This document shows positions 1,727 through 33,834 of a stretch of 64,000 bases of DNA, piece after piece; the first letter of the stretch is position 1; every line of letters starts with the position of its first letter. Made by a program: the position numbers and the translations under genes. The stretch lies in contig CP066693.1 in NCBI GenBank assembly GCA_016432525.1, forward strand, positions 547,650-611,649. The letters run 5' to 3'. A model generated the notes under the pieces. It did no database searches, was not told the DNA's origin, and saw only the letters and a list, made by a program, of their open reading frames with translations. The DNA is from Candidatus Woesebacteria bacterium (GTDB taxonomy: Bacteria > Patescibacteriota > Microgenomatia > UBA8517).

Positions 1727-2770
1727 ATGAAACAAAAATTAGTTACAATTATTATTGTCAATTGGAATGGTCTTCATCATTTAAAAAAATGTCTTCCATC
1801 TTTATATAAACAAAATTACAAAAAAATAGAAATTATTCTAGTTGATAACGCATCAACTGATGAGTCTGTGGTTTGGACTAAAAAAAATTTCTCCAAAATC
1901 AAAATAATTAAGAATTCAAAAAATCTGGGTTTTGCTCAAGGAAATAATGTTGGCTATAAAATTGCTTCTGGGGAATATATCTTGTTTCTAAACAATGACA
2001 CTAAAGTTTCGAAAAACTTTTTGAAAGAACTTCTGAAGGTTTTATCATCAGATCCAAAAATAGGAGGAGCACAAAGCAAGATCCTTTTTATGGATAGTCC
2101 TAGTCAATTGGACTCAGCTGGCTCGTACATGACTTACACTGGATTTTTGTATCACTTAGGAATTTATCAAAACCCCAAAAATTTTAAAAAACAATTTGAG
2201 ATTTTTTCTGCTAAAGGAGCTTGCATGATCTTTAAGAAAAAAGTAATAGATAAAATCTTGATAGATGGAAATATCTTCGATAGTCGATTTTTTGCGTATT
2301 TCGAAGAGACAGATTTTTGCCACAGAGTATGGTTGTCAGGTTACAAAATTGTATTTGCACCAAAATCAATAATTTACCATAAATTCGGAGCAACAAGCAT
2401 TCTTCTAGCAAAACCATTTATTGAATATCACTCTTACAAAAATCGAATCAACAGTTATATTAAAAATCTTTCCCTCAAAAATCTTTTGATAATTTTACCT
2501 ATACATATTCTTGCATGCGAATTTCTTTCTTTAATTTTCATATTAAGAAACAAATTCCATGTATTTTTAGCCATACAAAAAGCATTTTTTTGGAATATAA
2601 TCAATTTGCCTAAAACTATAGCCATTCGATTTTATATTCAAAATAAAATTCGAAAAGTGGAAGATCATATATTTTTTCACAAAATTATGCATAATCCAGA
2701 ATTCGATTATTATCTTTCAGCAGTAAAAGGCTGGAATATTACTCAAATCACCAAAAAAAATGAAAAATAA
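1727..2770 (+). CDS. Family 2 glycosyltransferase (rhamnosyl/GalNAc-transferase-like)
   Basis: N-terminal GT-A signature (IIIVNWNG...LYKQNYKKIEIILVDNASTDES); DxD-like region (FLNND); EETDFCHR motif typical of GT2 rhamnosyltransferase-like enzymes. Paralogous to the GT2 genes at 30179 and 35011. Confidence 0.8.
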   Translation: MKQKLVTIIIVNWNGLHHLKKCLPSLYKQNYKKIEIILVDNASTDESVVWTKKNFSKIKIIKNSKNLGFAQGNNVGYKIASGEYILFLNNDTKVSKNFLKELLKVLSSDPKIGGAQSKILFMDSPSQLDSAGSYMTYTGFLYHLGIYQNPKNFKKQFEIFSAKGACMIFKKKVIDKILIDGNIFDSRFFAYFEETDFCHRVWLSGYKIVFAPKSIIYHKFGATSILLAKPFIEYHSYKNRINSYIKNLSLKNLLIILPIHILACEFLSLIFILRNKFHVFLAIQKAFFWNIINLPKTIAIRFYIQNKIRKVEDHIFFHKIMHNPEFDYYLSAVKGWNITQITKKNEK

Positions 2771-5700
2771 ATCAATAATTTTTACTTTAATCTATACGAT
2801 ATTGGGTTTAATAGGCCTATTATTTTTGTCTAAGTTTTGGTTACCTAATGGTTTTACAATAGCTGGCCATGATTCAGGATTATCTCTAGATTCTAAACAA
2901 TTTTTACTTTCCAGGTTGTTTGCTTGGAATCCCAACATAGGTTTTGGTGTAGATAATTCCTTTTTATTCGGAAGTCTCACCTTGCATTTTGTAGATTATT
3001 TATCTTCTTCAATTAGCGGAAATATTTTTGCCGGAAATTGGTTAAATATCTTTTTCTGGCTAGGGTTAATATTTATCTCCGCGGTATTCTTTGCCAACCA
3101 CTTTAAAAACACTTTTGGAGAATATTTTGTTTTTATTTTCCCTCCACTTGTTATTTTTAATTTCTACCTTTTCCAATCGATATTTATTTTAGAACGAGCA
3201 AAATACAGTATATTAATTGGAATATTATTTTTTGTACCCATCCTTCTCAAATTTCTAAATAAAAAAATTTCTCTGTCACTAGCCTCAATAATTAGTGCCT
3301 TTATATTTTTTATCTTCAATGGAGGAAGTCTTCTTGGACTCTCTCTTTTTGGTAGCTTATTTGTAATTATCGGATGCATATTCATTTTCAATCTCGCTTC
3401 AGACATAAAAACCAGGAATTTTTCTCAGACAATTCGTTATGTCGTATTTTTATTGTTAACTGCAATAATCTTTGTTTTATTAAATAGCTATCAAATTTTT
3501 CCTTTTCTCCACGAAAGTCGTAGTCAAAGCTATTTTGATGCCCTTGGAGGAGCAGGAACACTTCAAAGCATCGATTGGGTTGATTACATTAGCAAGAACA
3601 CATCTCTCTTAAGTTTGCTTCGATTAGAAGGAGTACCAAGCTGGTATTCTGATTCCATAACCGCAAACCCCGAGCACCCTTACGCCTCGTTTTATTTAGA
3701 CAACGATTCTCAAATTCTTGTAAGTTTTATTTTTCCAGTTTTAGCAATATCTTGTTTTGTTCTTTACAAAAGTCATAAACAAAAAAAATTATTGTCCCTT
3801 TTTGGTTTAATTGTAATTACTTCAGCTTTTCTCTCAAGTGGAACCCATCCTCCTCTTGGTTCAATTTACACATTTTTGTATAAACACTTACCTGGTTTTT
3901 TTATTTTCAGAAATCCGTATTACAAATTTGCAGGTGGATATTTAATTGGGATGTCAGTACTTATTGCAGGAGCTTTCTCCTTCATAATTACTAAAATAAA
4001 CAAAAAGTTTATATGTCTTTTTTTAAGTTTCTTAATAATCTGTGGATGGATTACCTATCACTACAAACTACTTTTGCCTGATCAGGTTTTCACTTGGAAA
4101 ACAAATTTCACAACTAAGGTAAATATTCCAAGTTATGTTTTTGATTTTTACAAGTGGAACAACTCAGAAAACTTAAAAAATGGAAAAATCCTCCTACTCC
4201 CAAAGCTTAACGATCGATACTTTGCAGACAGTTATGTCTGGAAATATTGGAGTCTTTCTCCGTTAACATACACTCTAGCTACAGTTCCTGGGTTAATTAA
4301 CGAGGCAGATTTAAATGGAGGGGAAATGGCTTGGGTAAACAAAATGTATTCCGCAATCGACTCATCAGATGCCGAAGAAATAAATCTACTAGCTTCAAAA
4401 CTTAACATACGTTATCTTTTACTAAGAAACGATACAGGTAGTTCAGAAGGCAATCAAAAAATACAAAAAACACTTGATAATCTAGCAGGAATCACAAGTT
4501 ATAAAAAATTCGGAGAATGGAGTTTATATCGCGCTGAAAACGTTAACTCAAAAATTATAGATATTTCCCAATCAATCACACTAACATCCAATGAGGGAGC
4601 ATATACTTCCCGTGAATTTGCGCCAAACGAAACAGTAATTACACAAGAAGGTTCTGATGTTGAAAAAACGCTGTCTCCTTTCGCAAACAAAAAAATAAGA
4701 ACATATTTCTGCGACTCTTGTCTACTTGAACAGGTTAATAATGATCAATCTTTACCTCCAACTAGAGTATTGCCAAATTCGCCACTTTATTTTTTGAAAG
4801 ATAGAAATGATCAAAATACAATTAATCAATCTTCAGATGATTCAAGTAAAATCATCAATTATTTAATACTTGCTTTCAGAAAAACTGCTGAAGTTAAATC
4901 AATGGCTGCTATGAACATAGAGGACAGATATCTAAATATAGGAATGCAAAAAATTAACGAATATCTTGCCAACAGCCTTGCGCTTTTAAATAAGCATCCC
5001 GAATTATCAACAAATTATTTAATGGCTAAACAAACTCTCAACACTACCCTTCCACTCTTAAAAGAACTGCAAAAATTTGTAAAAACCCGCGAGTTTAGTC
5101 AAAACCAAGGCAAAATCGGCCAGCTTGTTTACACTGAAATAAACCTTCTCAATAATCTTAATGATTATTATAAACCAATTTATCGTGATATAGATTACTT
5201 AAAAAACAATAAAACATATGAGTTAGGTAAGGAAACTGAATTATATTTGGATATGAACAGTTTAAGTACAGATAAAAATGGAAAAATTCACAAACCCACT
5301 ACAATTTATTACAAAACTGCCAATTCCGAAGAAAAAATTACATTACAAAATACAGACAGTAGGTGGCAAAAAATTAACATGCCAAATAATATGGCAGATA
5401 CTGCAATCCTTACTTTACAGTTCGATCAGCCAGACATGTTTGTACAAGGAAAAAGTGGAATTCATTCTTTTCCTAGTGGAAACCATGGTTGTTCAGAAGG
5501 GAAAATCTATAATTTTAATTCAGACAAGACATATGAAATAAAAATTTTAGTAAACGATAAAGCTCAGCAACTAAATTTATTTTTTCAAAATTCAGGAAGC
5601 AATGAACTAAAAAGAAATGTTGATATCTACCCTATAGAAATCAGTCAACCCTTTATTTATATATATCATCCTGACCACGAAGATAACGATCCAACAGTTT

Positions 5701-6200
5701 ACATTTGTAGTCAAGATAGAGATTTACCCATTATTGGTGCAATATCAATCTACGAACTTACCTCACCTAGGATCCAAGCTATGGAAACAACAGTTGGTTC
5801 ACTTTTCTCATCTAATTCTAAAATCTCCTACCAAATACTAGATAAAACCAAATACTTAATTAACGTAGATGGAAATGGTTACGCTTTTATTACATTCGCG
5901 CAACGCTTTAGCCAGTTCTGGAAACTTTACAAGATTGATAGTAATTTTAATCTTAGCGACAAATTAGCTTGGATAAAAAATTGGACTACTCAAAAACAAA
6001 ATACCTCACATTTTATAGTAAACGGTTTTGAAAACGGTTGGCTCATCAATTCTAATGATCAAAAAACAACATGGGTTTTGGAATATGTTCCTCAAGAATT
6101 TTTCTTTTTAGGTTCTTTAGTTACAATCTTCTCTATACTCGCATTCTTTTTATTTGGCGTTTTCCTTTTAGTAAAAGAATATAAACATGAAAAAGTATAA
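2760..6200 (+). CDS. Large polytopic membrane protein, GT-C-like glycosyltransferase candidate (1146 aa) with big extracytoplasmic domain and C-terminal TM anchor
   Basis: Roughly 12 or more predicted TM helices in the first ~450 aa, a long soluble region, and a final hydrophobic helix. Start overlaps the upstream GT2 stop (atgaaaaaTAA). Architecture resembles YfhO/AftD-like GT-C enzymes. Family not verifiable by eye. Confidence 0.45.
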   Translation: MKNKSIIFTLIYTILGLIGLLFLSKFWLPNGFTIAGHDSGLSLDSKQFLLSRLFAWNPNIGFGVDNSFLFGSLTLHFVDYLSSSISGNIFAGNWLNIFFWLGLIFISAVFFANHFKNTFGEYFVFIFPPLVIFNFYLFQSIFILERAKYSILIGILFFVPILLKFLNKKISLSLASIISAFIFFIFNGGSLLGLSLFGSLFVIIGCIFIFNLASDIKTRNFSQTIRYVVFLLLTAIIFVLLNSYQIFPFLHESRSQSYFDALGGAGTLQSIDWVDYISKNTSLLSLLRLEGVPSWYSDSITANPEHPYASFYLDNDSQILVSFIFPVLAISCFVLYKSHKQKKLLSLFGLIVITSAFLSSGTHPPLGSIYTFLYKHLPGFFIFRNPYYKFAGGYLIGMSVLIAGAFSFIITKINKKFICLFLSFLIICGWITYHYKLLLPDQVFTWKTNFTTKVNIPSYVFDFYKWNNSENLKNGKILLLPKLNDRYFADSYVWKYWSLSPLTYTLATVPGLINEADLNGGEMAWVNKMYSAIDSSDAEEINLLASKLNIRYLLLRNDTGSSEGNQKIQKTLDNLAGITSYKKFGEWSLYRAENVNSKIIDISQSITLTSNEGAYTSREFAPNETVITQEGSDVEKTLSPFANKKIRTYFCDSCLLEQVNNDQSLPPTRVLPNSPLYFLKDRNDQNTINQSSDDSSKIINYLILAFRKTAEVKSMAAMNIEDRYLNIGMQKINEYLANSLALLNKHPELSTNYLMAKQTLNTTLPLLKELQKFVKTREFSQNQGKIGQLVYTEINLLNNLNDYYKPIYRDIDYLKNNKTYELGKETELYLDMNSLSTDKNGKIHKPTTIYYKTANSEEKITLQNTDSRWQKINMPNNMADTAILTLQFDQPDMFVQGKSGIHSFPSGNHGCSEGKIYNFNSDKTYEIKILVNDKAQQLNLFFQNSGSNELKRNVDIYPIEISQPFIYIYHPDHEDNDPTVYICSQDRDLPIIGAISIYELTSPRIQAMETTVGSLFSSNSKISYQILDKTKYLINVDGNGYAFITFAQRFSQFWKLYKIDSNFNLSDKLAWIKNWTTQKQNTSHFIVNGFENGWLINSNDQKTTWVLEYVPQEFFFLGSLVTIFSILAFFLFGVFLLVKEYKHEKV

Positions 6201-6546
6201 AACTGATCAGATCGAAATTGCTATTTATCGCTGGATTATCCGAAAAAGGGTAAAGATAATTCTAAGTCTTATTGCAATTGCGATAATATATCTCTTTTCT
6301 ATATTGCCTTATTTCAATATTTTAATAAGCAAAGAGATGGTTTATTTGATAATTACAATAATAGTTATATTAATTTTTGGTTTAAAGTCACAAACAATAT
6401 TCAAAATAACGGTTTTATTATTATTTCTTACTTTTTTTCTAGTTTTTATAAAACGTGATTATTTAGCAGAATTGGTTGGGGATGTAGTGTTTGTTCTTTT
6501 TGCACTCGGAATTTTTATGCAAATTTTTAAAAATAATGAAAAATAA
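6187..6546 (+). CDS. Small 4-TM membrane protein (possible GtrA-like lipid-linked sugar translocase accessory)
   Basis: 119 aa, four hydrophobic segments, embedded between GT-C-like genes. Assignment to the GtrA family is speculative. Confidence 0.3.
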   Translation: MKKYKTDQIEIAIYRWIIRKRVKIILSLIAIAIIYLFSILPYFNILISKEMVYLIITIIVILIFGLKSQTIFKITVLLLFLTFFLVFIKRDYLAELVGDVVFVLFALGIFMQIFKNNEK

Positions 6547-9022
6547 ATATTTTTGGCTAATTTGCTCAGTTAGTCTTTTTTTAGTAGTTTTAGCTTCATA
6601 CGGTTTTATTTTAAATTTATTTTTTTGGAGAGACGACTACGCACTTTTATATCAATTAAAACAAGGTGGTTTATTTGATTGGCCTTACCAAGCAATTACT
6701 CTAATATATTATCCTTTTTATATTTTCTTCAAAGCCAATCCAGTTTATTATTTTCTAATTTCATTTTTACTTTATTTTGCGTTTTGTTTTCTTTTAGTAA
6801 AATTTGTTCTGTATTTCACGAAAGATAAATTTACTTCTTACCTCTCAGGGCTAATTCTTGCAACAGGTTACATAGGATTAGAAATTATGTATATGGTTGG
6901 CACATCCATGTCTGGTTTAATATATATACTACCCAGCATCTTTATAATTTTCCTATACGAAGAAACTCTTAGAACCAACAAAAAAGCAAAACACATTCTT
7001 CCTTTCAGCTTGTATCTAGTTCTATTATTCCTTTTTCCTCATCGAGCACACTCACTTTTTGCAATCATTTTCTTGACGGATCTGTTCTTCTCTAAGATCA
7101 AAACACCTATTTTAAGCATTAAACGTTTCAAAACTACATTTTTGAGAACAAGTCCTTATCTCATAACCACCGCCATCGCTTTTATTTCTTTGCCTCGATT
7201 TTTTACACCTCAAGCTTCTTCCTCATCTTCATTGCAAGTGATTACTAGTTTTATTAAAAACTTTAACTTAAATTATATAAAATTTTTTTTTGCAGATTTT
7301 ACAAGTTTTTTTATTCCCGACCGTTTTCATCTTTCTCTCACTCAATCTGCTATTTTCGGTTTTTTTTCATTAATAGTAGGTTTAATTTTGATAAAATTAC
7401 CATCAGATAAAAAAACAAAAAATTTTTTGCAATTCTCATTTCTTGTTTGGATAGCAAGTTTTGTTAGTTACTATATAGCTACTCCCGACATAGTATTTTA
7501 CTCAACTCAAAGGTATTTACTTTTCTCATATCCATTTTTAATTCCAATTATTGCTTACTTTTTAAAATATTTGATTTTTGAGAAAAAAAATCTGTCTCTA
7601 AAAATAATTGGGTCGTTACTACTTATATTGCTAATATTTTTTCACTTGAGAGAAACTTTTCTTTACAAAAAAGATATTGTGAAAAGAGCAGAGGCAACAA
7701 CCAACTTTTTTAGTGATCTTCAAAAAGAAGTTCCAGAAATTCACAGAAAAACTATATTCTATTTTGATACAGTTTCAGATCCCGCAACTGAAGATATATT
7801 TGGAGATATCCTAAGAGTGGGTTTTTACCCAACAGAAGCTTCTTTAGCAAGTTATTATGGTGTCAAAATGTCAGACATAAAGATTGCAGATAACTACGAT
7901 GATTATATTAAAGAAAAAAATAATCTTTCAGATTCATACATGTTTTTTTATGACATTTCAAAAAAATTGATAAAAATTACCCCAACAAAAACAAAGCCTC
8001 AAAAATTGCAACTTAATTTTGCCAAGAAACCAATAAGCCAAAAATCCAATATTCTAATCACTCAAGATAAAAGCACCAGCTCAAATAATCTCATTAATTT
8101 AAAAATGGATAATTTTCCACTTTTTGGTCGTCTCTCAATCAATCTAAACTTAACAGCGCAAGATTTAATATCTGAAATTAAAAAATTTCCTTATAAGGAC
8201 GAATCATCGAGTGTTCCAGACAATCTACCAATAAAAATGATTCACGAAAAAAATTATCTCAATACTTTACTTTCTTATATTCAAGATAGAGAAAAATTTA
8301 GAAACCTTGTCCATTTATCATCCAGTAAATACGTTGAAGGCAAAGATCCTAAAAATGCAATAGATGGCAATCTTGATACAGAATGGGAAGCTGACAAAAG
8401 AGACTGGCTAGATACTCAAACAGCATCTCTAGAATTTCAATTTGATAATCTTTTCCTTCTGTCGCAAATAAGATTTATTACTTCACACCCAAGTAGACTA
8501 CCCATCGAATATGAATATTATTATTTTAATGAAAAAGCAGACAGATGGGAGTTATTTTATAAATCTAAAAAAATGAATTATTTAAATAATGTTTATATAA
8601 TAGATTCATTTACTCCGATCAGATCTAAAAAGTTCAAAATGGTTATAACAAAAACGCTAACAGGTGACTTTCCAGGTATATCCGAAATCGAATTACTACC
8701 CAATTCTAATAATGTCGATTCTCGTTTGGCAAATTTCATTATCAACAACCCAATGGCTGATATACAAAGTAAGGATGAGGCAAACATCATTCTCTCTTCC
8801 ATAAAAGAAAATATTAAGCTTTATATTTATCCCATATCAGACAAATATCTAGTTAAAAACGAAGCCGGAAGGATAGAAGTACCTATTTTCCTGGATGGTA
8901 AACCCCACAATTACCACATATCTTTACCACAAGGAGGAACAGTTTTGAAAGCTCTTATACTACAACTTCCTAATATTCCCATAAAAGTAAGTGTCAATTC
9001 AATAAATATTCAAACAGAATAG
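6536..9022 (+). CDS. Polytopic membrane protein with C-terminal F5/8 type C (discoidin) domain
   Basis: The ORF track starts at 6491, but the Met at 6536 gives the canonical ATGAAAAATAA overlap with the upstream stop. N-terminal multi-TM region. C-terminal discoidin-like segment (KDPKNAIDGNLDTEWEADKRDWLDTQTASLEFQFDNLFLLSQIRF). Confidence 0.55.
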   Translation: MKNKYFWLICSVSLFLVVLASYGFILNLFFWRDDYALLYQLKQGGLFDWPYQAITLIYYPFYIFFKANPVYYFLISFLLYFAFCFLLVKFVLYFTKDKFTSYLSGLILATGYIGLEIMYMVGTSMSGLIYILPSIFIIFLYEETLRTNKKAKHILPFSLYLVLLFLFPHRAHSLFAIIFLTDLFFSKIKTPILSIKRFKTTFLRTSPYLITTAIAFISLPRFFTPQASSSSSLQVITSFIKNFNLNYIKFFFADFTSFFIPDRFHLSLTQSAIFGFFSLIVGLILIKLPSDKKTKNFLQFSFLVWIASFVSYYIATPDIVFYSTQRYLLFSYPFLIPIIAYFLKYLIFEKKNLSLKIIGSLLLILLIFFHLRETFLYKKDIVKRAEATTNFFSDLQKEVPEIHRKTIFYFDTVSDPATEDIFGDILRVGFYPTEASLASYYGVKMSDIKIADNYDDYIKEKNNLSDSYMFFYDISKKLIKITPTKTKPQKLQLNFAKKPISQKSNILITQDKSTSSNNLINLKMDNFPLFGRLSINLNLTAQDLISEIKKFPYKDESSSVPDNLPIKMIHEKNYLNTLLSYIQDREKFRNLVHLSSSKYVEGKDPKNAIDGNLDTEWEADKRDWLDTQTASLEFQFDNLFLLSQIRFITSHPSRLPIEYEYYYFNEKADRWELFYKSKKMNYLNNVYIIDSFTPIRSKKFKMVITKTLTGDFPGISEIELLPNSNNVDSRLANFIINNPMADIQSKDEANIILSSIKENIKLYIYPISDKYLVKNEAGRIEVPIFLDGKPHNYHISLPQGGTVLKALILQLPNIPIKVSVNSINIQTE

Positions 9023-9029
9023 ATTCTTA

Positions 9030-10118: not shown

Positions 10119-10134
10119 TGTTATTTATTGTACA

Positions 10135-12305: not shown

Positions 12306-12311
12306 CTCAAA

Positions 12312-13286: not shown

Positions 13287-13364
13287 CTTCTAAGATCTAC
13301 CTAAATCGAGATAGATAATTGCACATTTTTTTAATTTGGTCTAGAGTCAGTTCAGTGCGCTAGC

Positions 13365-18762: not shown

Positions 18763-19450
18763 AGTCATAATTCCGTATTTTACAGATCTATAAAAATTTA
18801 TAGAAGAAGAATCAGCAAGATATCGTACAGGGACAGGAATTTCTCCAATTTTAAAATTATTTTTAATAGAATAAATAAGTATTTCCTGGTCAAAAACAAA
18901 ATCATCAGAAAATCTATGGAAGGGAATTTTTTTTAAAACTCTTTTATCAAATGCTCTAAACCCTGTGTGGTATTCAGATAAATTTTGACCTAAAAAAATA
19001 TTCTCAATTATTGTCAAAAAACGGTTTGAAATGTATTTATAAAATGGCATTCCTCCTTCCAAACTTTCTTTTCGAGTTCTTATTCTTGAACCCAACATAA
19101 TATCAAATCTATTATCTATAATTGGTTTCACTAAATCATAAGTTAAAGAACTATCATATTGATAATCGGGGTGAATCATAACGACTATATCAGCACCTTC
19201 GTTTAAAGCAAGAGTGTAACAAGTTTTTTGGTTACCACCATAACCTCTATTCTGTGGGTGAATAAACGTTTTTATGTTTAACTTTTTAGCAAGCTTTACT
19301 GTTTTATCCCTACTTCCATCGTCAACTAAAATTACTTTATCAGCCACTCCCTTAGGTATATCCTCATACGTCCTTTTGAGAGTTTTTTCTGCATTATATG
19401 CGGGCATTACTATTACAATAATGGGCTTTCTTATACTCTTTCTGTTCATA
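18727..19450 (-). CDS. GT2 glycosyltransferase (polyprenyl-phosphate sugar synthase-like)
   Basis: KPIIVIVMPAYNAEKTLKRTYEDIP...VILVDDGSRDKT. The likely start is the internal Met (MNRKSIRK) at 19450 rather than the ORF-track start at 19515. Confidence 0.75.
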
Positions 19451-19467
19451 TTTGATATTATATAACC

Positions 19468-27921: not shown

Positions 27922-29045
27922 TGATCATAGGTCTTGACGGAAACGAAGCAAATATTGAAAACAGAGTTGGAGTAAATGTATACGCATTCGAGCTCCTCAC
28001 TGCTATCTCCAAACTACAGGAGAATTGGAAAAATAAACATACAATTATAGTTTATCTTAAAAGGAATCCTCTTCCTGACATGCCTAGAGAAACAAAAAAT
28101 TTCAAATACAAAATTTTACCTGGACGAAAAATTTGGATTCTCACTCGTCTTACTCCATATCTATTACCAAATCCTGACAAGTTAGACCTTTTCTTTACTC
28201 CAAGTCATTATTTACCTTTAATTTTAAAAATTCCATCAGTTTGCTCAATCATGGACTTAGGTTACCTCAATTCTTCGGAACAATTTAAAAAATATGACTT
28301 TTGGCAACTCAAATATTGGACTGCCAGCTCCTTACAGAAGGCTAAAAAAATAATAGCCATATCGGAAAGCACTAAAAAAGATATTTTACGACACTATCCA
28401 AACACAGCTAAAAAAATTGAAGTTACTCTTCTTGCTTATGATAAAAATAAATTCAATCAAAAAACTATAAATAAAGATGTGCGACAAGTCAAAAACAAAT
28501 ACCACATTAACAAAAACTATATCCTATTTTTAGGTACTTTAAAACCTAGTAAAAACATCGAAGGTTTACTACTCGCTTTTGCAAAAATAAGTAAAGAATT
28601 CCCTGATATTGAATTAGTTATTTCCGGGAAAAAAGGTTGGCTATTTGAAAGTATCTTCCATAAAGCAAAAGAATTAAATCTAGAAAATAGAGTTATCTTT
28701 ACAGGTTTCGTAGATGAAAAAGATAAGCCTTCCCTTATCGGGTCAGCTAAAATATTCTGCCTTCCTTCGTTCTGGGAAGGTTTTGGCCTTGATGTGTTAA
28801 ATGCCCTCGCATCAGGGGTTCCGTGTATTATATCTGATCGTGGGAGTCTTCCAGAAGTTGGTGGGTTAGTAGCTTTATATGCGGACCCTCAAAATACTGA
28901 TTCAATTGCCTATAATTTGAAAAAAGTTTTATCTATGAAAAAAGTAGAATATAATAAGCTATCCAGAAATTCAGCTAAATGGGCACAAAAATTTGATTGG
29001 GAAAAAACTGCTAATAAAACCTTGAAAATTCTGGAAAGCATTTAA
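27921..29045 (+). CDS. GT4 glycosyltransferase
   Basis: EGFGLDVLNALASGVPCIISDRGSLPEV motif. Confidence 0.8.
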   Translation: MIIGLDGNEANIENRVGVNVYAFELLTAISKLQENWKNKHTIIVYLKRNPLPDMPRETKNFKYKILPGRKIWILTRLTPYLLPNPDKLDLFFTPSHYLPLILKIPSVCSIMDLGYLNSSEQFKKYDFWQLKYWTASSLQKAKKIIAISESTKKDILRHYPNTAKKIEVTLLAYDKNKFNQKTINKDVRQVKNKYHINKNYILFLGTLKPSKNIEGLLLAFAKISKEFPDIELVISGKKGWLFESIFHKAKELNLENRVIFTGFVDEKDKPSLIGSAKIFCLPSFWEGFGLDVLNALASGVPCIISDRGSLPEVGGLVALYADPQNTDSIAYNLKKVLSMKKVEYNKLSRNSAKWAQKFDWEKTANKTLKILESI

Positions 29046-29048
29046 AAC

Positions 29049-29645
29049 ATGTTTAAAGACAAAAACGGGAACAATCTAAGTCTTGGTCAGGCTTTTCCTA
29101 AAATAACTAATCGTATTTTTAATTATTGGCTAGATTTTGAATTAATGCTTTTAAGGTGGGTAGGTCTCGTTCCATCTCATCGTTTCCGTAAATTCTTTTA
29201 CCAACTCGCAGGAATAAAGATAGGTTCAGGATCTGTTATTCATATGTGGGCTAATTTTTTTGATCCAAGAAATATTGAAATTGGTGAAGATTCAATAATT
29301 GGTGACCACATCTTTCTAGATGGTCGCAGCAAACTTACAATTGGCAACCATGTTGATATAGCCTCTCAAGTTTTAATCTATAATTCAGAACATAATCTTG
29401 AAAGTTCTGAATTCAAAGCCAGAAACGAAAAGGTTGAAATTGGAAATTACGTCTTTATCGGTCCAAGGGTCATAATTTTACCTGGTGTTACGATTGGAAA
29501 AGGTGCAGTTGTCGCAGCTGGAGCAGTTGTAACAAAGAGCGTTATGGATTTTGAAATCGTAGGTGGAGTTCCAGCTAAAGCAATAGGTGAGAGAAAAAAT
29601 AAAAAACCAGACTATAAACTCGGTCGAGCTCGCCTTTTCCAATAA
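29049..29645 (+). CDS. Hexapeptide-repeat (left-handed beta-helix) sugar O-/N-acetyltransferase (WcaF/LacA-like)
   Basis: Imperfect hexapeptide repeats (IGEDSIIGDHIFLDG...IGNHVDIASQVLIY...IGNYVFIGPRVIILPGVTIGKGAVVAAGAVV). Confidence 0.75.
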   Translation: MFKDKNGNNLSLGQAFPKITNRIFNYWLDFELMLLRWVGLVPSHRFRKFFYQLAGIKIGSGSVIHMWANFFDPRNIEIGEDSIIGDHIFLDGRSKLTIGNHVDIASQVLIYNSEHNLESSEFKARNEKVEIGNYVFIGPRVIILPGVTIGKGAVVAAGAVVTKSVMDFEIVGGVPAKAIGERKNKKPDYKLGRARLFQ

Positions 29646-29653
29646 GTTTAAAA

Positions 29654-30178
29654 ATGAAAAAAATCATTCCAGGATTATATGTATTAATTTCAATTGCCTT
29701 TTGTATTTATCTTGTTCTTCCCTCAAGAGGCTTCCCTGATCCTTTACCTGGATCAGTCAGATCAGATGAAGAAGGAGATAACGAAACTTCACTTAGGCGT
29801 GCTTATTTCACAAACTTGCAGCGCGAGGAAATAATAAATTATTACAAAAAAGAATTTTGGTATCTTCCTACTCTCAGATTAAATTACCCTCCAGAAGATG
29901 CTCAAACTCTTATCCGAGATCAAACCAGAAGCACTTTTCTAGAAGAACTGGTTCACCCATTTCGCGAATCGTTTTATATAAATGGATTTAAACCAATAAA
30001 AGCAAAAGATGACATTTGGTATAAAGGGGTTCATTATGTTGAAAAAATAACAGTTGTTTATGTACCAAATAGCCCAATAATTAGACTTTTGGTAATTATT
30101 CCCACACAATTTTTTGTCTGGATTGTAATTGCGCAGTTTCTAAAGTCAATTAAAGAATTTAGGTTAAAAAAAATATAG
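29654..30178 (+). CDS. Small membrane protein, unknown function
   Basis: N-terminal and C-terminal hydrophobic helices; 174 aa. Confidence 0.35.
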   Translation: MKKIIPGLYVLISIAFCIYLVLPSRGFPDPLPGSVRSDEEGDNETSLRRAYFTNLQREEIINYYKKEFWYLPTLRLNYPPEDAQTLIRDQTRSTFLEELVHPFRESFYINGFKPIKAKDDIWYKGVHYVEKITVVYVPNSPIIRLLVIIPTQFFVWIVIAQFLKSIKEFRLKKI

Positions 30179-31072
30179 ATGCTTGATCTTTCAATAATCA
30201 TAGTAAGCTTCAATACAGAAAAATTAACTCTGGACTGTATCAAATCAATATTATCTTCAAATCCGAAAATCAAATATGAAATTATCTTAATAGATAACGC
30301 ATCAAATGATTCAACTGTTAAAAAAATTAGCAATCTAAAACCTAAAAATATTAGGATAATTAAAAACTCTGAAAATCTTGGATTTGCCAAAGCCAATAAT
30401 CAGGGAATGAAGATTGCCAAAGGTCGTTATATTCTTCTATTAAATTCAGATACCAAACTTAACGATGACATTTTAACCAACATGACAAATTGGATGGAAG
30501 AAAATAAAAATGTTGGAATAGCAAGCTGTGCTCTAAAAAATAAAGACAACTCTTTTCAGGGAACAGGAGGTTTTTTTCCAAGCCTTCCCAAAATCTTCTC
30601 CTGGATGTTTTTTCTTGAAGATATTCCCTTTCTTGATTCTATAATCAAGCCTTTTCACCCATATCATCCCAATTCACCTTTCTATAAAGGAGAAAATTTT
30701 TACAAAAAAGAGCACGAACAAGATTGGGTTACAGGAGCTTTTTTCTTCGTAAGAAGAAAAGTAATTGATGATATTGGGCTCTTTGATGAAAAATATTTTA
30801 TGTATGTAGAAGAAGTCGACTTTTGCTTGAGAGCTAAAAAAAAGGGCTGGAAAGTATTCTTTACTCCAATTGGAGCGGTTACTCATTACGGGGGTGCAAG
30901 TGGAACTTCCGATTTTTCAATTATTGCCGAATTTAATGGAATTAAATATTTCTTTCAAAAAAATTATCCAAAATGGCAATATCCAATACTTTTGTTAATG
31001 CTAAAATTGGGAAGTCTTATTAGATCTTTTTTCAAAGGAGCAGTTTATGCAAAAACTTTTAAAGAAATTTGA
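30179..31072 (+). CDS. GT2 glycosyltransferase (rhamnosyltransferase-like)
   Basis: LSIIIVSFNTEKLTLDCIKSIL...YEIILIDNASNDSTV; EEVDFCLR motif. Paralog of 1727..2770 and 35011..35916. Confidence 0.8.
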   Translation: MLDLSIIIVSFNTEKLTLDCIKSILSSNPKIKYEIILIDNASNDSTVKKISNLKPKNIRIIKNSENLGFAKANNQGMKIAKGRYILLLNSDTKLNDDILTNMTNWMEENKNVGIASCALKNKDNSFQGTGGFFPSLPKIFSWMFFLEDIPFLDSIIKPFHPYHPNSPFYKGENFYKKEHEQDWVTGAFFFVRRKVIDDIGLFDEKYFMYVEEVDFCLRAKKKGWKVFFTPIGAVTHYGGASGTSDFSIIAEFNGIKYFFQKNYPKWQYPILLLMLKLGSLIRSFFKGAVYAKTFKEI

Positions 31073-32405
31073 TTCACTACTAAAATTCGGGGTAGCAGCA
31101 ATTCTTATTGCTGTTCCTCTGTATCCCAAATTTCCATTCATAAACGTCCCAGGAACTTATGTGTCTATAAGAATAGAAGATTTTTTAGTTTTTTTTGTAG
31201 TCTTAATCTCAACTCTTCTTTTTCTGAAAGATCTGAAAGTTAAAAATCTAAAAGAAAAAATTAAATCAATTTTTAAAAATAAATTTGCCGTTAGCTTTAT
31301 TCTTTTTTTTGCTATTACTCTTCTCTCTGTTCTTTCTGGAATTTTCCTTACAAAAACAGTAGTTTTTCATATCGGTTTTCTTCACTGGGCTCGCCGTATC
31401 CAGTATATGATTTTATTTTTTGTTGGAATTCAGGTAGTTAAGTCAATCAAAGATGTTAAATTTTTTACAAAATGTTTAATGATCGTAATAGTTTTTGTTT
31501 TTTTCTTTGGAATTGGCCAAAAATATTTTGGATTACCAGTTATTACTACACAAAATTCAGAATACTCAAAAGGCATAGCCTTGCGCTTTATGCAGGGAAG
31601 TCATTTGATATCAACTTTTGCAGGACACTATGATCTTTCAACATTTTTAATATTAGTATCTCCACTTCTTTACACAACACTAGTAAGTGACATATCAAAA
31701 AAACCAAAAGTTTTAATTCTTTTTTGTATGCTTTCCTCCCTCTGGTTACTTTCAAATGCTGCTGCTCGAATCTCTTTTGTAGCCTACGAAGGAGCAATTG
31801 TATTAACTCTGATCCTGGTGAAAAAGTATAAATTTATTGCTTTATTTTTAGTTATTTCTGCAATTTTTGCTCTTTTTTCTCCAAATTTAGTTTCAAGATT
31901 TACTAACATTTTTGATGTAACTATCAAAAAAATAATAACAAGTACTCATGTTCAAGTTTATGCCCAAGAAGAATCACCAACACCTACTCCAATACCAGTT
32001 GTAGAAGATAGGTCAACATCAATTAGATTAAATGTCGAATGGCCAAGGGCAATTCGAGCTTTTGAAATTAATCCATTTTTAGGAACTGGTTTTTCCTCAA
32101 TTAGTCTAGCAACAGACAACGATTACTTAAGGGTTTTAGGTGAAGCTGGAATTTTGGGATTTTTATCTTTCATAACTATATTTATTAGAATCATTAAAAA
32201 ACTTTTAGATGAAATTAATCTTAAATCTAAAAATTTCAAAAATGCCTATTTAATTGCCTTAATTGCCACTCTTCCAGCAATTTTTCTAAACTCGCTATTT
32301 ATTGATGTATTTGAGGCTTCAAAGTTTGCAATGATTTTTTGGCTAATGTTAGGATTCGGGGTAGGTTTACAAAAAATTAAAGATGAAAATATTAAAGACT
32401 TTTAA
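31047..32405 (+). CDS. O-antigen ligase / Wzy-like polymerase family membrane protein
   Basis: About 10-12 TM helices with a large periplasmic loop late in the sequence. Composition and length fit the Wzy_C family. By eye only. Confidence 0.5.
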   Translation: MQKLLKKFDSLLKFGVAAILIAVPLYPKFPFINVPGTYVSIRIEDFLVFFVVLISTLLFLKDLKVKNLKEKIKSIFKNKFAVSFILFFAITLLSVLSGIFLTKTVVFHIGFLHWARRIQYMILFFVGIQVVKSIKDVKFFTKCLMIVIVFVFFFGIGQKYFGLPVITTQNSEYSKGIALRFMQGSHLISTFAGHYDLSTFLILVSPLLYTTLVSDISKKPKVLILFCMLSSLWLLSNAAARISFVAYEGAIVLTLILVKKYKFIALFLVISAIFALFSPNLVSRFTNIFDVTIKKIITSTHVQVYAQEESPTPTPIPVVEDRSTSIRLNVEWPRAIRAFEINPFLGTGFSSISLATDNDYLRVLGEAGILGFLSFITIFIRIIKKLLDEINLKSKNFKNAYLIALIATLPAIFLNSLFIDVFEASKFAMIFWLMLGFGVGLQKIKDENIKDF

Positions 32406-33834
32406 GTTCAAAAAAATACTAACGATTATAATTTTATCAATTATCTTGATTGGTGGATTTGCAGTAAGGCTTTATAAAATCAACTCTCCAATTGCTGATT
32501 GGCATTCCTGGCGCCAAGCAGACACAGCCTCTGTTGCAAGAATATATTCAGATAGGGGAATTGATCTTCTTCATCCGCGCTACTACGATGTCTCAAGCAT
32601 ACAAACGGGTTATTACAACGGCGATGGTCTTCGATATGTCGAGTTTCCTGTATATAACGTTGCTCATGTTGTTTTGTATAAATTAATCCCTAATCTGGGA
32701 TTTGAAGTCGCGGGCCGTTTAATTACAATTTTTAGTTCACTCACAACTGCCTTCCTTATATATCTTCTTTGTAAAAGATATATAAACAAAACAGCAGCTT
32801 TTTTTGGCGCATTCTTTTTTGCATTTTTACCATTTAACATTTTCTTTAGTCGTGTAATTTTGCCCGAAGAAATGGCTGTTATGTTTGCAATTGCCTCAGT
32901 TTATATATTTTCAATTTTTACTCAAAAAGAAAAAAACCTCTATCTTTTTCTATCGGCAATATCATTTTCATTGGCAATTCTAGTAGATCCATATGTTGCT
33001 TTTTATTCTATTCCAATTATTTATCTTGCACTTAAAAAATATGGTCTAAAATCTTTCTTTAAAGTTACTTTTTATCTTGCATTAGATCTAGCTTTAGTTC
33101 CATTATTTTTATGGAGAGCCTATTTTTTTGAAAAAGTTGTAGGAATTCCTCCAGTTGAATGGGCTTTTAATGGAGATGGAATCCGTTTCAGGCCAGCCTT
33201 TTGGTGGTGGATCTTTGGTCAAAGATTGGGAAGTCTGATTCTTGGCATTTGGGGAACAGCTTTATTTGTCTTAGGTTTCGCTAAAAACGACAAAAAGAAC
33301 TTATTTGTTGAATCAATGGCGCTTGGTGCATTTATTTTTGTTTCAGTTGTTGCAACAGCAAATGTCAGACACGATTACTATCAGTCAATGATAATTCCTG
33401 CCGTTGTCTTTGTCCTTGCCAAAGGAACTTCTTATGTTTGGAACTTAGGTAAAATTAGACCAAAACTAGTTATTTTCGCTTCAATTTTTCTAATGCTCTT
33501 AATTGGAGCATATCAGGTCAAAGAATACTACAAAATCAATCACCCCGAATTTATGTTAGCCGGTGCATATATCGACAAAATTGCTCCTAAAGATGCCAAA
33601 GTCATAGCTCCAAATAATGGAGACACTGCATTTCTTTACCAAACCAAACGTTTCGGTTGGCCAGTTTTAGATCGCTCAATCGATGAAACAATTACCTTAG
33701 GTGCCAAATATTATGTTTCTGTGACTTTTAACGATACAGATACAGTTAACTTCAAAAAAAGGTTCAAAACAATTGAAGAAAACCAACAGTTCATAGTTCT
33801 CGACCTCACAAAAGAAATCAGTAAAAAGAAATGA
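32383..33834 (+). CDS. GT-C glycosyltransferase, PMT/ArnT-like (GT39/83)
   Basis: The first periplasmic loop carries WRQADTASVAR and DGLRYVEFPVYN, which resemble the PMT-family catalytic loop; multiple TM helices. Confidence 0.6.
   Translation: MKILKTFKFKKILTIIILSIILIGGFAVRLYKINSPIADWHSWRQADTASVARIYSDRGIDLLHPRYYDVSSIQTGYYNGDGLRYVEFPVYNVAHVVLYKLIPNLGFEVAGRLITIFSSLTTAFLIYLLCKRYINKTAAFFGAFFFAFLPFNIFFSRVILPEEMAVMFAIASVYIFSIFTQKEKNLYLFLSAISFSLAILVDPYVAFYSIPIIYLALKKYGLKSFFKVTFYLALDLALVPLFLWRAYFFEKVVGIPPVEWAFNGDGIRFRPAFWWWIFGQRLGSLILGIWGTALFVLGFAKNDKKNLFVESMALGAFIFVSVVATANVRHDYYQSMIIPAVVFVLAKGTSYVWNLGKIRPKLVIFASIFLMLLIGAYQVKEYYKINHPEFMLAGAYIDKIAPKDAKVIAPNNGDTAFLYQTKRFGWPVLDRSIDETITLGAKYYVSVTFNDTDTVNFKKRFKTIEENQQFIVLDLTKEISKKK

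Follow-up and report, generated by a model that had tools for sequence, protein, structure and literature searches.

Predicted GT-C glycosyltransferases and two candidate polyprenyl-phosphate glycosyltransferases in a probable envelope-glycan locus of Candidatus Woesebacteria

The genome of a member of Candidatus Woesebacteria (Microgenomates, candidate phyla radiation) carries a single probable envelope-glycan locus of ~42 kb, which raises the question of whether the glycosyltransferases of the locus make up a set of separate decoration modules or one pathway. The initial annotation paired five small GT2 genes (1727, 13365, 18727, 24690, and 30179, each named by its first coordinate) with five large membrane protein genes (2760, 14063, 16120, 25511, and 32383). 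It interpreted these as five modules that may decorate the surface in a combinatorial or phase-variable manner. All of the open reading frames that it named are where it placed them, and the gene calls of the source assembly are the same as ours. The window, which is the whole 64,000-nucleotide stretch that was analyzed, holds the larger part of the locus. Families were assigned by Pfam, NCBIfam, and PDB sequence searches, with hhalign for profile-profile links, while topology is based on a Kyte-Doolittle hydropathy scan and one AF2 model.

Layout of the locus and its GT-C enzymes

Nearly all locus genes overlap or are separated by <20 nt, and they are translationally coupled in long operons (Table 1). 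The locus ends at position 41935, after which come the housekeeping genes RecO, MraW, and PBP (Pfam). It contains eight GT-C-type genes, seven GT2 genes, and six genes for GT4 enzymes. The initial count was wrong, having missed 22274, 6536, and the gene at the left window edge (<1-1723), which is complete in the source contig (L055:832-3192, 786 aa).

Table 1. Genes of the locus by predicted class
Coordinates	Strand	Feature	Length (aa)	Basis or remark
2-1723	+	GT-C-type, PMT_2-like TM domain + F5/8 type C ectodomain	C-terminal 573 of 786
1727-2770	+	GT2, ordinary Leloir type	347	Pfam GT2, E 3e-25
2760-6200	+	AftD-like GT-C	1146	PF11847 homologues, PDB AftD, hhalign
6187-6546	+	Small membrane protein, ~4 hydrophobic segments	119	TM scan, relatives
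6536-9022	+	GT-C-type, PMT_2-like TM domain + F5/8 type C / CBM_AftD-like ectodomain	828
9030-10118	-	Radical SAM/SPASM protein		Pfam, NCBIfam
10135-11205	-	FemAB-family acyl/aminoacyl transferase		Pfam, NCBIfam
11202-12305	-	DegT aminotransferase		Pfam, NCBIfam
12312-13286	-	NDP-hexose 4,6-dehydratase-like		Pfam, NCBIfam
13365-14066	-	Candidate ArnC-like polyprenyl-phosphate glycosyltransferase (GT2)	233	PDB, NCBIfam
14063-15940	-	YfhO/PTPS_related-like GT-C	625	Homologue domains, hhalign
16120-18762	+	AftD-like GT-C, CBM-like ectodomains + C-terminal TM	880
18727-19515	-	Candidate DPM1/DPMS-like polyprenyl-phosphate glycosyltransferase (GT2)	262 as called	PDB, NCBIfam
19468-20736	+	Wzx/MOP-family flippase, 12 TM		Pfam Polysacc_synt, Polysacc_synt_3; NCBIfam MOP flippase
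20733-21572	+	GT2, ordinary		Pfam; conserved core
21572-22270	+	SAM methyltransferase		Pfam; conserved core
22274-23632	+	GT-C, PMT_2/GT87-like	452	PMT_2 39.5 bits, GT87 34.8 bits, both above gathering score
23611-24693	+	GT4		Pfam
24690-25514	+	GT2, TarS/TarP/K4CP-like, C-terminal hydrophobic hairpin	274	PDB, hhalign, Foldseek
25511-26845	+	GT-C, PMT_2 family	444	PMT_2 56.2 bits, cutoff 26.1
26827-27921	+	GT4		Pfam
27921-29045	+	GT4		Pfam
29049-29645	+	Hexapeptide acyltransferase		Pfam
29654-30178	+	Protein with two hydrophobic segments	174	TM scan
30179-31072	+	GT2, ordinary	297	NCBIfam MftF, rhamnosyltransferase best
31047-32405	+	Wzy_C-domain protein (polymerase, ligase, or O-oligosaccharyltransferase type), 10 TM		Pfam Wzy_C 44.7 bits, cutoff 31.7
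32383-33834	+	GT-C, PMT_2/PMT family	483	PMT_2 49.8 bits, PMT 32.3 bits, both above cutoff
33831-35024	+	GT4		Pfam, NCBIfam
35011-35916	+	GT2, ordinary		Pfam, NCBIfam
35913-37067	+	GT4		Pfam, NCBIfam
37021-38109	+	GT4		Pfam, NCBIfam
38015-39235	+	ManC-like mannose-1-P guanylyltransferase (GDP-mannose-type nucleotidyltransferase)		Pfam
39241-39882	+	Initiating polyprenyl-phosphate phosphoglycosyltransferase		NCBIfam EPS_sugtrans, WbaP-type C-terminal domain, E 2e-74
39902-41935	+	DUF4012 membrane protein		Pfam

The proposal that the large membrane proteins are GT-C enzymes is borne out by Pfam, the domains of homologues, hhalign, and acidic motifs after TM1. The five large genes named in the initial annotation encode polytopic proteins with 8 to 12 hydrophobic segments (Kyte-Doolittle), and directly after TM1 each family conserves one acidic motif (WGDAP, GHD, RGND, FWxDD, WLDEA, or WPE). 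Three of the eight GT-Cs (2760, 14063, and 16120) resemble AftD/YfhO and have carbohydrate-binding ectodomains. In the 2760 protein, whose family conserves GHD, ~11 TM segments at the N-terminus are followed by a large ectodomain and then by a TM segment at the C-terminus. PF11847 (AftD GT-C) is present in 37 of 120 of its homologues among the matches listed, and the sole PDB match of the family profile is Mycobacterium abscessus AftD (E 5e-5). By hhalign, this family matches the 16120 family, in which WGDAPYF is invariant, over its full length (99.7%, E 8e-26). The 14063 protein itself has a weak YfhO match (E 8e-4) that is below the cutoff, while its homologues among the matches listed carry PF09586 (YfhO; 14), PF10131 (9), PF20176 (2), and PF11847 (1). 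Its family conserves RGNDL...WP and also matches the 16120 family (98.3%, E 2e-14).

The other five GT-Cs are PMT_2-like (<1-1723, 6536, 22274, 25511, and 32383). The <1-1723 protein has a Pfam F5_F8_type_C match (E 2.5e-9) and is paralogous over its full length to the 6536 protein (E 8e-46). After TM1 the two share a motif, which reads YFWQDD in the former and FWRDD in the latter. A database protein identical to residues 16 to 843 of the 6536 open reading frame begins at M16. Members of the 6536 family contain F5_F8_type_C (32 of 40), CBM_AftD (9 of 40), and PMT_2 (4 of 40), and hhalign links this family to the 25511 PMT_2 family (96.2%, E 2e-9, 321 columns); in that alignment FWxDD falls opposite WLDEA. 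The 22274 family, with an invariant W-P-E, is linked to the 25511 family (95.5%), with an invariant W-x-D-E-A.

One possible role for such enzymes is mainly protein glycosylation. The targets of O-mannosylation by the PMT_2/PMT-type GT-Cs would then be proteins that are secreted or on the surface (pilins, S-layer, and the like), and the Wzy_C protein would be a PglL/PilO-type O-oligosaccharyltransferase that moves an Und-PP-linked glycan to protein. However, PMT_2 is also the family of the Gram-positive polymer-decorating GT-Cs GtlB, GacL, and CsdD (PMC8035078), and the locus has no candidate target protein gene. In addition, the CBM-type ectodomains on the three largest, AftD/YfhO-like GT-Cs suggest that the acceptors are glycans. 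We consider protein glycosylation as the main role to be rather unlikely.

Classification of the GT2 enzymes and small membrane proteins

Pfam Glycos_transf_2 matches all five small genes (E 1e-22 to 1e-34). The polyprenyl-phosphate (Pren-P) sugar synthase signature that had been attributed to all of them is supported by NCBIfam and PDB searches for 13365 and 18727 but not for 1727, 24690, and 30179. The best PDB matches of 13365 are ArnC (E 3e-18, residues 6 to 227), GtrB, and DPMS, and its best NCBIfam matches are ArnC, PgfS, and PpgS. It consists of a catalytic domain and juxtamembrane region without the TM hairpin. For 18727, which has no TM segment, the best PDB match is PfDPMS (E 4e-7) and the best NCBIfam matches are AglJ, PpgS, and Dol-P-hexose transferase. 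This gene is convergent with 16120 and overlaps its neighbors on both sides, and its true start is probably later than the called one. With the Pren-P glycosyltransferase residues listed in PMC12690121 as the reference, 13365 keeps ArnC R128, R137, and R205, and 18727 retains the GSR arginine (DPMS R117), K160 (DPMS R131), and D-Y-Q. In place of the leading Asp of DXD, which has been proposed to act as the catalytic base of ArnC/DPMS, 13365 has Ser and 18727 has His. Based on these similarities, 13365 and 18727 are candidate Pren-P glycosyltransferases, and none of the other three named GT2s resembles this class (ArnC/GtrB/DPMS).

The five ordinary GT2s (1727, 24690, 30179, 20733, and 35011) are nearest to TarS/TarP, K4CP, and GalT1. 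The 1727 protein best matches HpsN and rhamnosyltransferase in NCBIfam, and its PDB matches are GalT1, 6p61, and TarS, with no ArnC, GtrB, or DPMS match in that search. The best PDB matches of 30179 are 6p61 and K4CP, and DPMS and GtrB are matched by its N-terminus alone (E ~3e-5). We rejected 1727, 24690, and 30179 as Pren-P sugar synthases, their acceptor halves being unlike those of Pren-P glycosyltransferases, so that three of the five proposed GtrB/GtrC-like pairs fall.

The 24690 protein might instead be a divergent, membrane-anchored Pren-P glycosyltransferase, which would give the locus at least three donor synthases. Consistent with this, it has two C-terminal hydrophobic helices, its gene is coupled by a 4-nt overlap to the GT-C gene 25511, an adjacency seen in 34 related loci (that is, most), and, in our own reading, a Lys/Arg lies 26 residues past the DXD Asp, which is the spacing of ArnC R128 and DPMS R117. 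The DPMS match of its family profile reaches residue 123 but is confined to residues 1 to 123, and the hhalign match to the DPM1-like set covers the N-terminal 105 columns and no further. In contrast, the best PDB match of the profile is K4CP (E 9e-36, residues 3 to 184), over the full domain 24690 is most similar to K4CP, TarS, TarP, and GalT1, the top Foldseek matches are TarP, TarS, CgT, and RmlT (model pLDDT 66), and DADMT stands in place of a DXDLQ motif. By sequence, 24690 does not appear to be a Pren-P glycosyltransferase, and we regard that assignment as quite unlikely.

Two small proteins, 6187 and 29654, had been proposed to be GtrA-like. The first is indeed a small membrane protein and is conserved, but neither shows GtrA similarity, and no recognizable GtrA-type flippase was found in the window. 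The 6187 gene is translationally coupled to 2760 and is the sole open reading frame of 70 to 220 aa in the window with at least three hydrophobic segments. After their 2760 homologue, 23 related loci have an open reading frame of 118 to 159 aa in the corresponding position, with detectable similarity in 16 of the 23, and no GtrA match was found in 22 family members. The 6187 protein is possibly a partner or a flippase, and by sequence not a GtrA. The 29654 protein, with two hydrophobic segments and no Pfam or NCBIfam match, was rejected as GtrA-like.

Conservation in related Microgenomates

We compared 52 species-representative Microgenomates loci, examining +/-10 kb. The genes of a core block (16120-Wzx-GT2-MT-GT-C-GT4-GT2-GT-C-GT4-GT4) follow one another in the same order in much of this set, including many Woese-, Blackburn-, and Daviesbacteria species. 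The 20733 GT2 is present in 43 of the 52 loci, the 21572 methyltransferase in 44, and the 22274 GT-C in 42, and the median number of GT-C genes within +/-10 kb is 4. Two features of the locus are real and nonrandom: how densely it is packed with GT-C genes and how well its gene order is conserved between species. Retention of the core order in so many species favors a core pathway over an accessory, switchable one, and the locus looks like a core envelope pathway. The 6536-13365 segment is absent from most related loci and thus varies between lineages. A DPM1-like GT2 is nearby in 9 loci, adjoining a GT-C in 7 of them. Most related loci have none within +/-10 kb, and donor synthases are therefore not obligatory in the locus.

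These data bear on whether the locus is five independent GtrB/GtrA/GtrC or CsbB/GtcA/YfhO-like modules, each with its own lipid-linked sugar and one decoration. The neighbors 13365/14063 and 18727/16120 fit that pattern, as do the variable 6536-13365 segment and the GtrB-like C-terminal hairpin of 24690, which precedes a PMT_2 GT-C in 34 loci. However, 1727, 24690, and 30179 are nearest to acceptor-glycan GT2s, with acceptor halves that cannot be aligned with those of Pren-P glycosyltransferases, and no GtrA homologue was found. GT2/GT-C adjacency, which had been taken as the signature of the modules, amounts to five pairs among 34 genes compared with 3.3 expected (permutation P=0.20) and does not exceed chance in a locus so dense in GT genes. 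Simple-sequence and homopolymer tracts in the locus do not exceed the base-composition expectation. Phase-variable or combinatorial decoration is unsupported, given this lack of excess repeats, the long coupled operons, and the core order kept among relatives. Classification of the GT2s already largely refutes the five modules, and we judge them very unlikely; the initial reading is partly supported, by the GT-C identity and by two pairs with a candidate Pren-P glycosyltransferase.

A proposed pathway

The explanation that we favor, and consider reasonably probable, is a conserved Wzx/Wzy-type envelope-glycan (glycopolymer or glycoconjugate) locus in which many GT-Cs share few polyprenyl-P-sugar donors. 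The phosphoglycosyltransferase 39241 would start the glycan on undecaprenyl phosphate, GT4 and GT2 enzymes would lengthen it in the cytoplasm, Wzx 19468 would then flip it, and the Wzy_C protein 31047 would polymerize or ligate it. The GT-Cs would extend and branch the glycan at the outer face of the membrane, with the acidic motif after TM1 catalyzing transfer from polyprenyl-P-monosaccharides. These lipid donors would be made by only two (or a few) synthases and be common to several GT-Cs. A single C55-P-sugar synthase and a single flippase can supply several GT-Cs, TM-less GT-A enzymes with separate membrane partners are known, and so are Wzx-type flippases in such glycosylation systems (PMC8035078).

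Plausibly, 18727 turns the ManC product into polyprenyl-P-mannose (or the equivalent for a different hexose), which would serve the GT87/PMT_2-type and AftD-like enzymes. The sugar-nucleotide modification genes at 9030-13286 (minus strand) stand downstream of 13365, which the GT-C gene 14063 overlaps by 4 nt, and the minus-strand operon 14063-13365-12312-11202-10135-9030 may be an Arn-like module in which the dehydratase, aminotransferase, and acyltransferase would together yield an N-acylated 4-amino-4,6-dideoxyhexose nucleotide, from which 13365 would put the sugar on polyprenyl phosphate for transfer outside by 14063. Which sugars are used, whether the acceptor is a polysaccharide, a lipid, or a protein, and which donor serves each GT-C are all inferred here.

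Evidence against this explanation is that both Pren-P candidates lack TM helices as well as the first DXD Asp, that the window has no recognizable GtrA-type flippase, and that a DPM1-like GT2 is missing within +/-10 kb in most related loci. The conserved, coupled GT2/GT-C pair 24690-25511 is left without an explanation other than adjacency.

With many GT-Cs, few lipid donors, and a conserved core polymer, the proposed system would be nearer to mycobacterial arabinogalactan/lipoarabinomannan (LAM) assembly than to GtrABC-type accessory serotype conversion. In this ultra-small candidate-phyla-radiation bacterium, a compact gene cluster of ~42 kb appears to be given over to a surface glycan, with eight predicted large membrane glycosyltransferases compared with only two candidate lipid-sugar donor synthases. 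Relatives retain the greater part of the cluster, which therefore does not appear to consist of five decoration modules that can be switched.

Extent of the locus and its GT-C enzymes

The glycan locus is very compact. Between the left window edge and position 41935, nearly all adjacent genes overlap or lie <20 nt apart, and the genes downstream of 41935 are housekeeping genes (RecO, DUF2130, MraW, and PBP). The GC content of the window is ~30%, the gene calls of the source assembly agree with our ORF calls, and every ORF named in the initial annotation is present at its coordinates. The products of 2760 and 16120 (ORFs are named by their start positions) are 100% identical to hypothetical proteins HY044_03005 and HY044_03055 of a Candidatus Woesebacteria MAG; Woesebacteria are part of the Microgenomates, inside the CPR/Patescibacteria. 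The locus contains seven GT2 genes (1727, 13365, 18727, 20733, 24690, 30179, and 35011) and eight GT-C-type genes, and this one locus takes up ~4.6% of the 0.92-Mb contig. The leftmost GT-C gene, called as an ORF of 558 aa (47 to 1723), really runs past the window edge. The full gene in the source contig (L055:832-3192) encodes 786 aa. Its product is paralogous to the 6536 protein over the full length (E = 8e-46) and shares the YFWQDD motif after TM1. A second ORF terminates upstream of this gene (L055:2-835), so the locus may continue further leftwards. The last gene of the locus (39902 to 41935), directly 3' of the putative initiating phosphoglycosyltransferase gene, encodes a DUF4012 protein of 677 aa with 2 TM segments, perhaps with a part in chain-length control, export, or ligation. 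No LCP-type ligase or Wzz-type protein was found among the scanned ORFs (through 47739).

The large membrane proteins that neighbor the five GT2s of the initial annotation are polytopic, and their proposed identity as GT-C enzymes is borne out by Pfam, hhalign, the domains of homologues, and the TM1 motifs; the count was even understated, at five rather than eight. The large membrane proteins have a polytopic N-terminal TM domain with a GT-C fold. Above Pfam gathering cutoffs, 22274 matches PMT_2 and GT87, 25511 matches PMT_2, and 32383 matches PMT_2 and PMT. An alignment of the 6536 family with the PMT_2 family of 25511 spans 321 columns (96.2%, E = 2e-9) and places FWxDD opposite WLDEA; the 40 members of the 6536 family carry F5/8 type C (32/40), CBM_AftD (9/40), and PMT_2 (4/40) domains. 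The AftD/YfhO-like proteins 2760, 14063, and 16120 are linked to one another by family alignments: in hhalign, the 16120 family is matched by the 2760 family over the full length (99.7%, E = 8e-26) and also by the 14063 family (98.3%, E = 2e-14). PF11847, the AftD GT-C domain, is present in 37 of the 120 listed homologues of 2760, and AftD is the sole PDB match of the 2760 family profile (E = 5e-5). Domains among the listed 14063 homologues are YfhO (14), PTPS_related (9), PF20176 (2), and PF11847 (1). The 16120 family profile gave only weak ectodomain matches to PDB sequences (E of 0.17 or worse), and 16120 had to be placed by fold search. The AftD-type layout, in which the GT-C domain is followed by CBM ectodomains and then by a C-terminal TM segment, was found, at ~10% identity to AftD. 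Assignment of the large membrane proteins as transporters or Wzy polymerases was rejected, with Wzy_C and MOP flippase matches confined to 31047 and 19468.

The catalytic residues of GT-C enzymes sit directly after TM1 (PMC8035078). Of the eight GT-C families, the six listed in the table were aligned, and an acidic motif is conserved at this position in each of them. These motifs are predicted to be extracytoplasmic on the basis of hydropathy and the positive-inside rule.

Conserved TM1-proximal residues of the GT-C families and positions of other features in the window and in related loci
Feature	Position	Strand	Remark
GT-C 16120	D35 (WGDAP)		invariant or nearly so
GT-C 2760	H37-D38		invariant or nearly so
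GT-C 14063	N31-D32		invariant or nearly so
GT-C 6536	D34 (FWxDD)		invariant or nearly so
GT-C 25511	D24-E25		invariant or nearly so
GT-C 22274	E28		invariant or nearly so
6187-family relative (example)	L001:6912-7277
6187-family relative (example)	L020:6973-7341
Response-regulator receiver	48644-49024		by eye
ISL3-transposase zinc-finger fragment	51716-52012	-	by eye
RelE/HigB-type toxin	52262-52633	-	by eye

Downstream of the locus, ~4.5 kb at positions 48200 to 52700 has a GC content of 0.41 to 0.54 versus ~0.30 to 0.37 on both flanks. This stretch (for what its ORFs look like by eye, see the table) lies within a cell-division/cell-wall cluster, between PBP (46039 to 47739) and a 129-aa ORF (52704 to 53093) that appears by eye to be a MurF C terminus; murF may be truncated. 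Neither Rfam nor ARAGORN gave matches, so that rRNA or tRNA genes do not explain the high GC at 48 to 52 kb. Either a foreign island or a chimera in the MAG assembly could account for the stretch.

Candidate lipid-sugar synthases and small membrane proteins

The initial annotation had read five adjacent GT2/GT-C gene pairs as an exceptional arrangement. In so GT-dense a locus, such adjacency does not exceed chance: for 34 genes, 5 adjacent pairs are observed versus 3.3 expected (permutation P = 0.20). All five named small genes encode GT2s (Pfam E of 1e-22 to 1e-34), and we judged all five by one criterion, namely, which solved structures and curated families they resembled and over what length. 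Judged in this way, the polyprenyl-phosphate synthase signature ascribed to all five is upheld for 13365 and 18727 but not for 1727, 24690, and 30179, whose structure and family matches and acceptor half point elsewhere. GtrB/GtrC logic thus fits two of the five pairs and fails in three.

In the PDB search, 13365 matches ArnC over residues 6 to 227 (ArnC residues 7 to 226; E = 3e-18), with GtrB and DPMS next, and 18727 matches PfDPMS over chain residues 25 to 218 (E = 4e-7); in both, the similarity takes in the entire catalytic domain, acceptor half included. Top NCBIfam matches are ArnC, PgfS, and PpgS for 13365 and AglJ, PpgS, and Dol-P-hexose transferase for 18727. In polyprenyl-phosphate glycosyltransferases (Pren-P GTs), the acceptor phosphate is bound by basic residues (ArnC R128/R137, DPMS R117/R131, and GtrB R122/K132), ArnC R205 is another residue listed for the class, and the extended DXD motif is D-A-D-L-Q, with its first Asp proposed as the catalytic base (PMC12690121). 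R125, R135, and R205 of 13365 align with ArnC R128, R137, and R205. In 18727, R144, which belongs to a GSR motif invariant in 10 relatives, corresponds to DPMS R117, and K160 corresponds to DPMS R131, which is Lys in GtrB too. The DXD region reads S-A-D-Q-P in 13365 and H-P-D-Y-Q in 18727, so that the first Asp is replaced by Ser and His, respectively, while the second is retained in both and the Gln is retained in 18727. Related DPM1-like genes of other loci have the canonical DADGQ or DADLA. The hydropathy scan found no hydrophobic segment or TM helix in 13365 or 18727; GtrB, ArnC, and PfDPMS are anchored by C-terminal TM helices. Pren-P GTs that have no TM segments and are paired with separate membrane partners have been described (PMC8035078), so that the lack of TM helices is compatible with Pren-P GT activity. 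Both proteins are credible, somewhat atypical members of the class.

The best matches of 1727, 24690, and 30179 are GalT1, K4CP, TarS, TarP, and 6p61, and ArnC, GtrB, and DPMS are either absent from their matches or restricted to the N-terminal 90 to 125 residues, the nucleotide-binding half. For 24690, a 34-sequence family profile matches K4CP over residues 3 to 184 (E = 9e-36), with DPMS confined to residues 1 to 123, and a profile-profile comparison (hhalign) of this family with ten DPM1-like sequences aligns 105 N-terminal columns only. Foldseek gave TarP, TarS, CgT, and RmlT as top matches for a model of 24690; this result is supporting evidence only, because the model was built from an alignment of window paralogues only and is of low confidence (pLDDT 66, C-terminal half poor). 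With the resemblance to DPMS limited to the N-terminal half and the K4CP match extending beyond it, we consider it quite improbable that 24690 is a divergent Pren-P GT.

The DPM1-like gene 18727 (18727 to 19515, minus strand) lies antisense between two plus-strand genes and, as called, overlaps 16120 by 36 nt and the Wzx gene by 48 nt. The true start probably lies downstream of the called GTG, because the Pfam match begins at residue 35 and orthologues have ~245 aa. In other genomes, the gene is found at differing positions, as if independently inserted.

Two small membrane proteins, 6187 and 29654, had been put forward as GtrA-like. The second has two hydrophobic segments only and no Pfam or NCBIfam match, and we do not retain it. 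The first is a real conserved gene for a small polytopic protein but has no GtrA similarity: PF04138 is matched neither by 6187 nor by 21 positional orthologues, even at E ≤ 5, and no Pfam or NCBIfam family matches 6187. It has 119 aa and four hydrophobic segments, and is coupled to an AftD-like gene; no other ORF of 70 to 220 aa in the 64-kb window has three or more hydrophobic segments. In 23 related loci, an ORF of 118 to 159 aa occupies the same position, directly 3' of the AftD-like gene, and 16 of these are detectably similar. P-Y-F-N-L and A-E motifs are conserved in this family (~120 aa), whose genes in Microgenomates always immediately follow that of the AftD-like GT-C. GtrA/GtcA flippases have ~120 aa and 3 to 4 TM helices and are encoded with GT-A/GT-C genes; the likeness of 6187 to them in size, TM number, and gene context is mere resemblance. 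The sole recognizable flippase of the locus is the Wzx protein at 19468.

Conservation across Microgenomates

When GTDB species representatives were scanned with the 16120 family, 52 distinct loci were obtained, many of them interrupted by contig ends; the lineages named for them are Woesebacteria, Blackburnbacteria, Daviesbacteria, Gottesmanbacteria, and other Microgenomates/Patescibacteria. A block recurs in fixed order: 16120, Wzx, GT2 (20733), methyltransferase, GT-C (22274), GT4, GT2 (24690), GT-C (25511), GT4, GT4. The Wzx, GT2, methyltransferase, and GT-C genes are each found in 42 to 44 of the 52 loci, the 24690-25511 adjacency in 34, and at least 8 consecutive core genes in window order in 23. 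Homologues of 2760 and 14063 are mostly upstream of the core block, and the number of GT-C genes within ±10 kb has a median of 4 and a maximum of 5. Only 9 of the 52 loci have a DPM1-like GT2 gene within ±10 kb; its position varies, and it adjoins a GT-C gene in 7 of the 9. The 6536-13365 segment, which carries a GT-C gene, the amino-sugar genes, and the gene for the ArnC-like GT2, is particular to this lineage.

The suggestion of phase-variable decoration found no support. TRF found only low-score tandem arrays of ≤4 copies; the longest A/T runs, of 9 nt, number six versus an expectation of 3.8, and G/C runs of ≥7 nt are absent. No SSR or homopolymer signature is present in the GT genes or upstream of them, and the core gene order is kept across species. 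Nor does comparison of the 52 loci show five switchable modules; it shows an ordered core plus lineage-specific additions. Based on the order kept in relatives and the absence of SSR or homopolymer signatures, we conclude that the locus is a conserved core pathway with lineage-specific add-ons rather than a set of switchable modules.

Variants that may have arisen by fusion or duplication of locus components occur in three related loci: a 1067-aa ORF with a Wzy_C protein as best match, between the 30179 and 32383 homologues (L054); a 1124-aa ORF with a 14063-like best match (L045); and two 14063 paralogues (L007). Among L003 to L054, many GTDB MAG records bear the title "uncultured Gammaproteobacteria bacterium," and one bears "Candidatus Woesearchaeota archaeon." The Microgenomates-type gene content and 35 to 45% identity to Woesebacteria proteins suggest that such records are mislabeled.

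Relation to known systems and a possible pathway

Like this locus, the CsbB/GtcA/YfhO, GtlA/GtlB, GacI/GacJ/GacK/GacL, and GtrABC systems combine a GT-A Pren-P GT with a GT-C that transfers sugar outside the membrane, and they have GT-C families in common with it (YfhO and PMT_2 types). Multicomponent systems offer precedents for synthases without TM helices, for flippases of the Wzx type, and for a single synthase that supplies several GT-Cs (PMC8035078). Unlike these systems, this locus has eight GT-Cs versus two recognizable donor synthases and no GtrA/GtcA homologue, and its GT-Cs lie inside the conserved core of a polymer-synthesis locus rather than in accessory pairs.

In gene content, the minus-strand operon 14063-13365-12312-11202-10135-9030 is similar to the Arn (PmrHFIJKLM) pathway for lipid A aminoarabinose: its genes include a GT-C, an ArnC-like GT2, an SDR-type 4,6-dehydratase, a DegT (ArnB-family) aminotransferase, and a FemAB-type N-acyltransferase. 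Unlike in Arn, the GT-C is YfhO-like, not ArnT, the GT2 has no TM helices, and homologues of ArnD and ArnE/F are absent. The dehydratase belongs to the 4,6-dehydratases, which indicates a 6-deoxyhexose rather than the pentose of Arn. To our knowledge, CPR bacteria have no lipid A.

Wzx/Wzy O-antigen, capsule, and secondary cell-wall loci share with this locus a Bac_transf phosphoglycosyltransferase, GT4 and GT2 enzymes, a MOP flippase, Wzy_C, and sugar-nucleotide genes in one operon, but GT-C content is far higher here, and the order, usually strain variable in such loci, is kept across many species. We regard it as unlikely that the locus serves mainly protein O-glycosylation.

In its logic, the closest analogue is the mycobacterial/corynebacterial machinery for arabinogalactan and LM/LAM (AftA-D, EmbA-C, and PimE/Mpt, with DPA and PPM donors). 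AftD (PF11847) uses decaprenyl-phospho-arabinofuranose as donor and arabinan as acceptor. Identity to AftD is low, the scanned window ORFs include no DPA pathway genes (UbiA-type prenyltransferase, DprE1/2), and unlike the actinobacterial machinery, the locus has Wzx/Wzy-type components and belongs to a CPR host with a ~0.9-Mb contig.

In the pathway that we propose, the 39241 phosphoglycosyltransferase would initiate synthesis, and GT4 and GT2 enzymes would extend the glycan in the cytoplasm. Wzx would flip the product, the Wzy_C protein (31047) would polymerize or ligate it, and the GT-Cs would extend and branch the glycan outside the membrane, their donors being polyprenyl-phosphate sugars from a few synthases common to several GT-Cs. 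From family names, we guess that ManC (38015), 18727, and the enzymes of the GT87/PMT_2 type take part in polyprenyl-phosphate-mannose chemistry. Tentatively, and as a possibility that falls short of probable, we suggest that Microgenomates (genomes of ~1 Mb) share an undescribed ~40-kb glycan-assembly locus whose GT-Cs, up to eight and three of them AftD/YfhO-like with CBM ectodomains, build a complex, branched envelope heteropolysaccharide outside the membrane that is a functional analogue of actinobacterial arabinogalactan/lipomannan, and that the 6187-family protein replaces GtrA as partner or flippase.

Each component is from a known family. Their combination is unusual: eight GT-Cs, three of them AftD/YfhO-like, inside a Wzx/Wzy-type locus of a CPR genome, with a core kept in relatives, only two recognizable donor synthases, and no GtrA. 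In the literature on CPR/Microgenomates with GT-C, AftD, or cell envelope, we found general reviews only and no published description of this locus. Adjacency of GT2 and GT-C genes alone overpredicts GtrABC-like modules in GT-dense loci. The locus supplies sets of genes that can be tested: those for two candidate synthases of lipid-linked sugars, for an amino-sugar module of the Arn type, for the three enzymes that resemble AftD, and for a new small membrane protein that may be a partner. CPR/Patescibacteria are ultra-small, with reduced genomes, and as far as we know, all cultivated members are episymbionts. The CPR surface is the site of host contact. The share of the contig given to this one locus, its eight GT-Cs, and a core kept across Woese-, Blackburn-, and Daviesbacteria imply a complex surface glycopolymer under selective maintenance.
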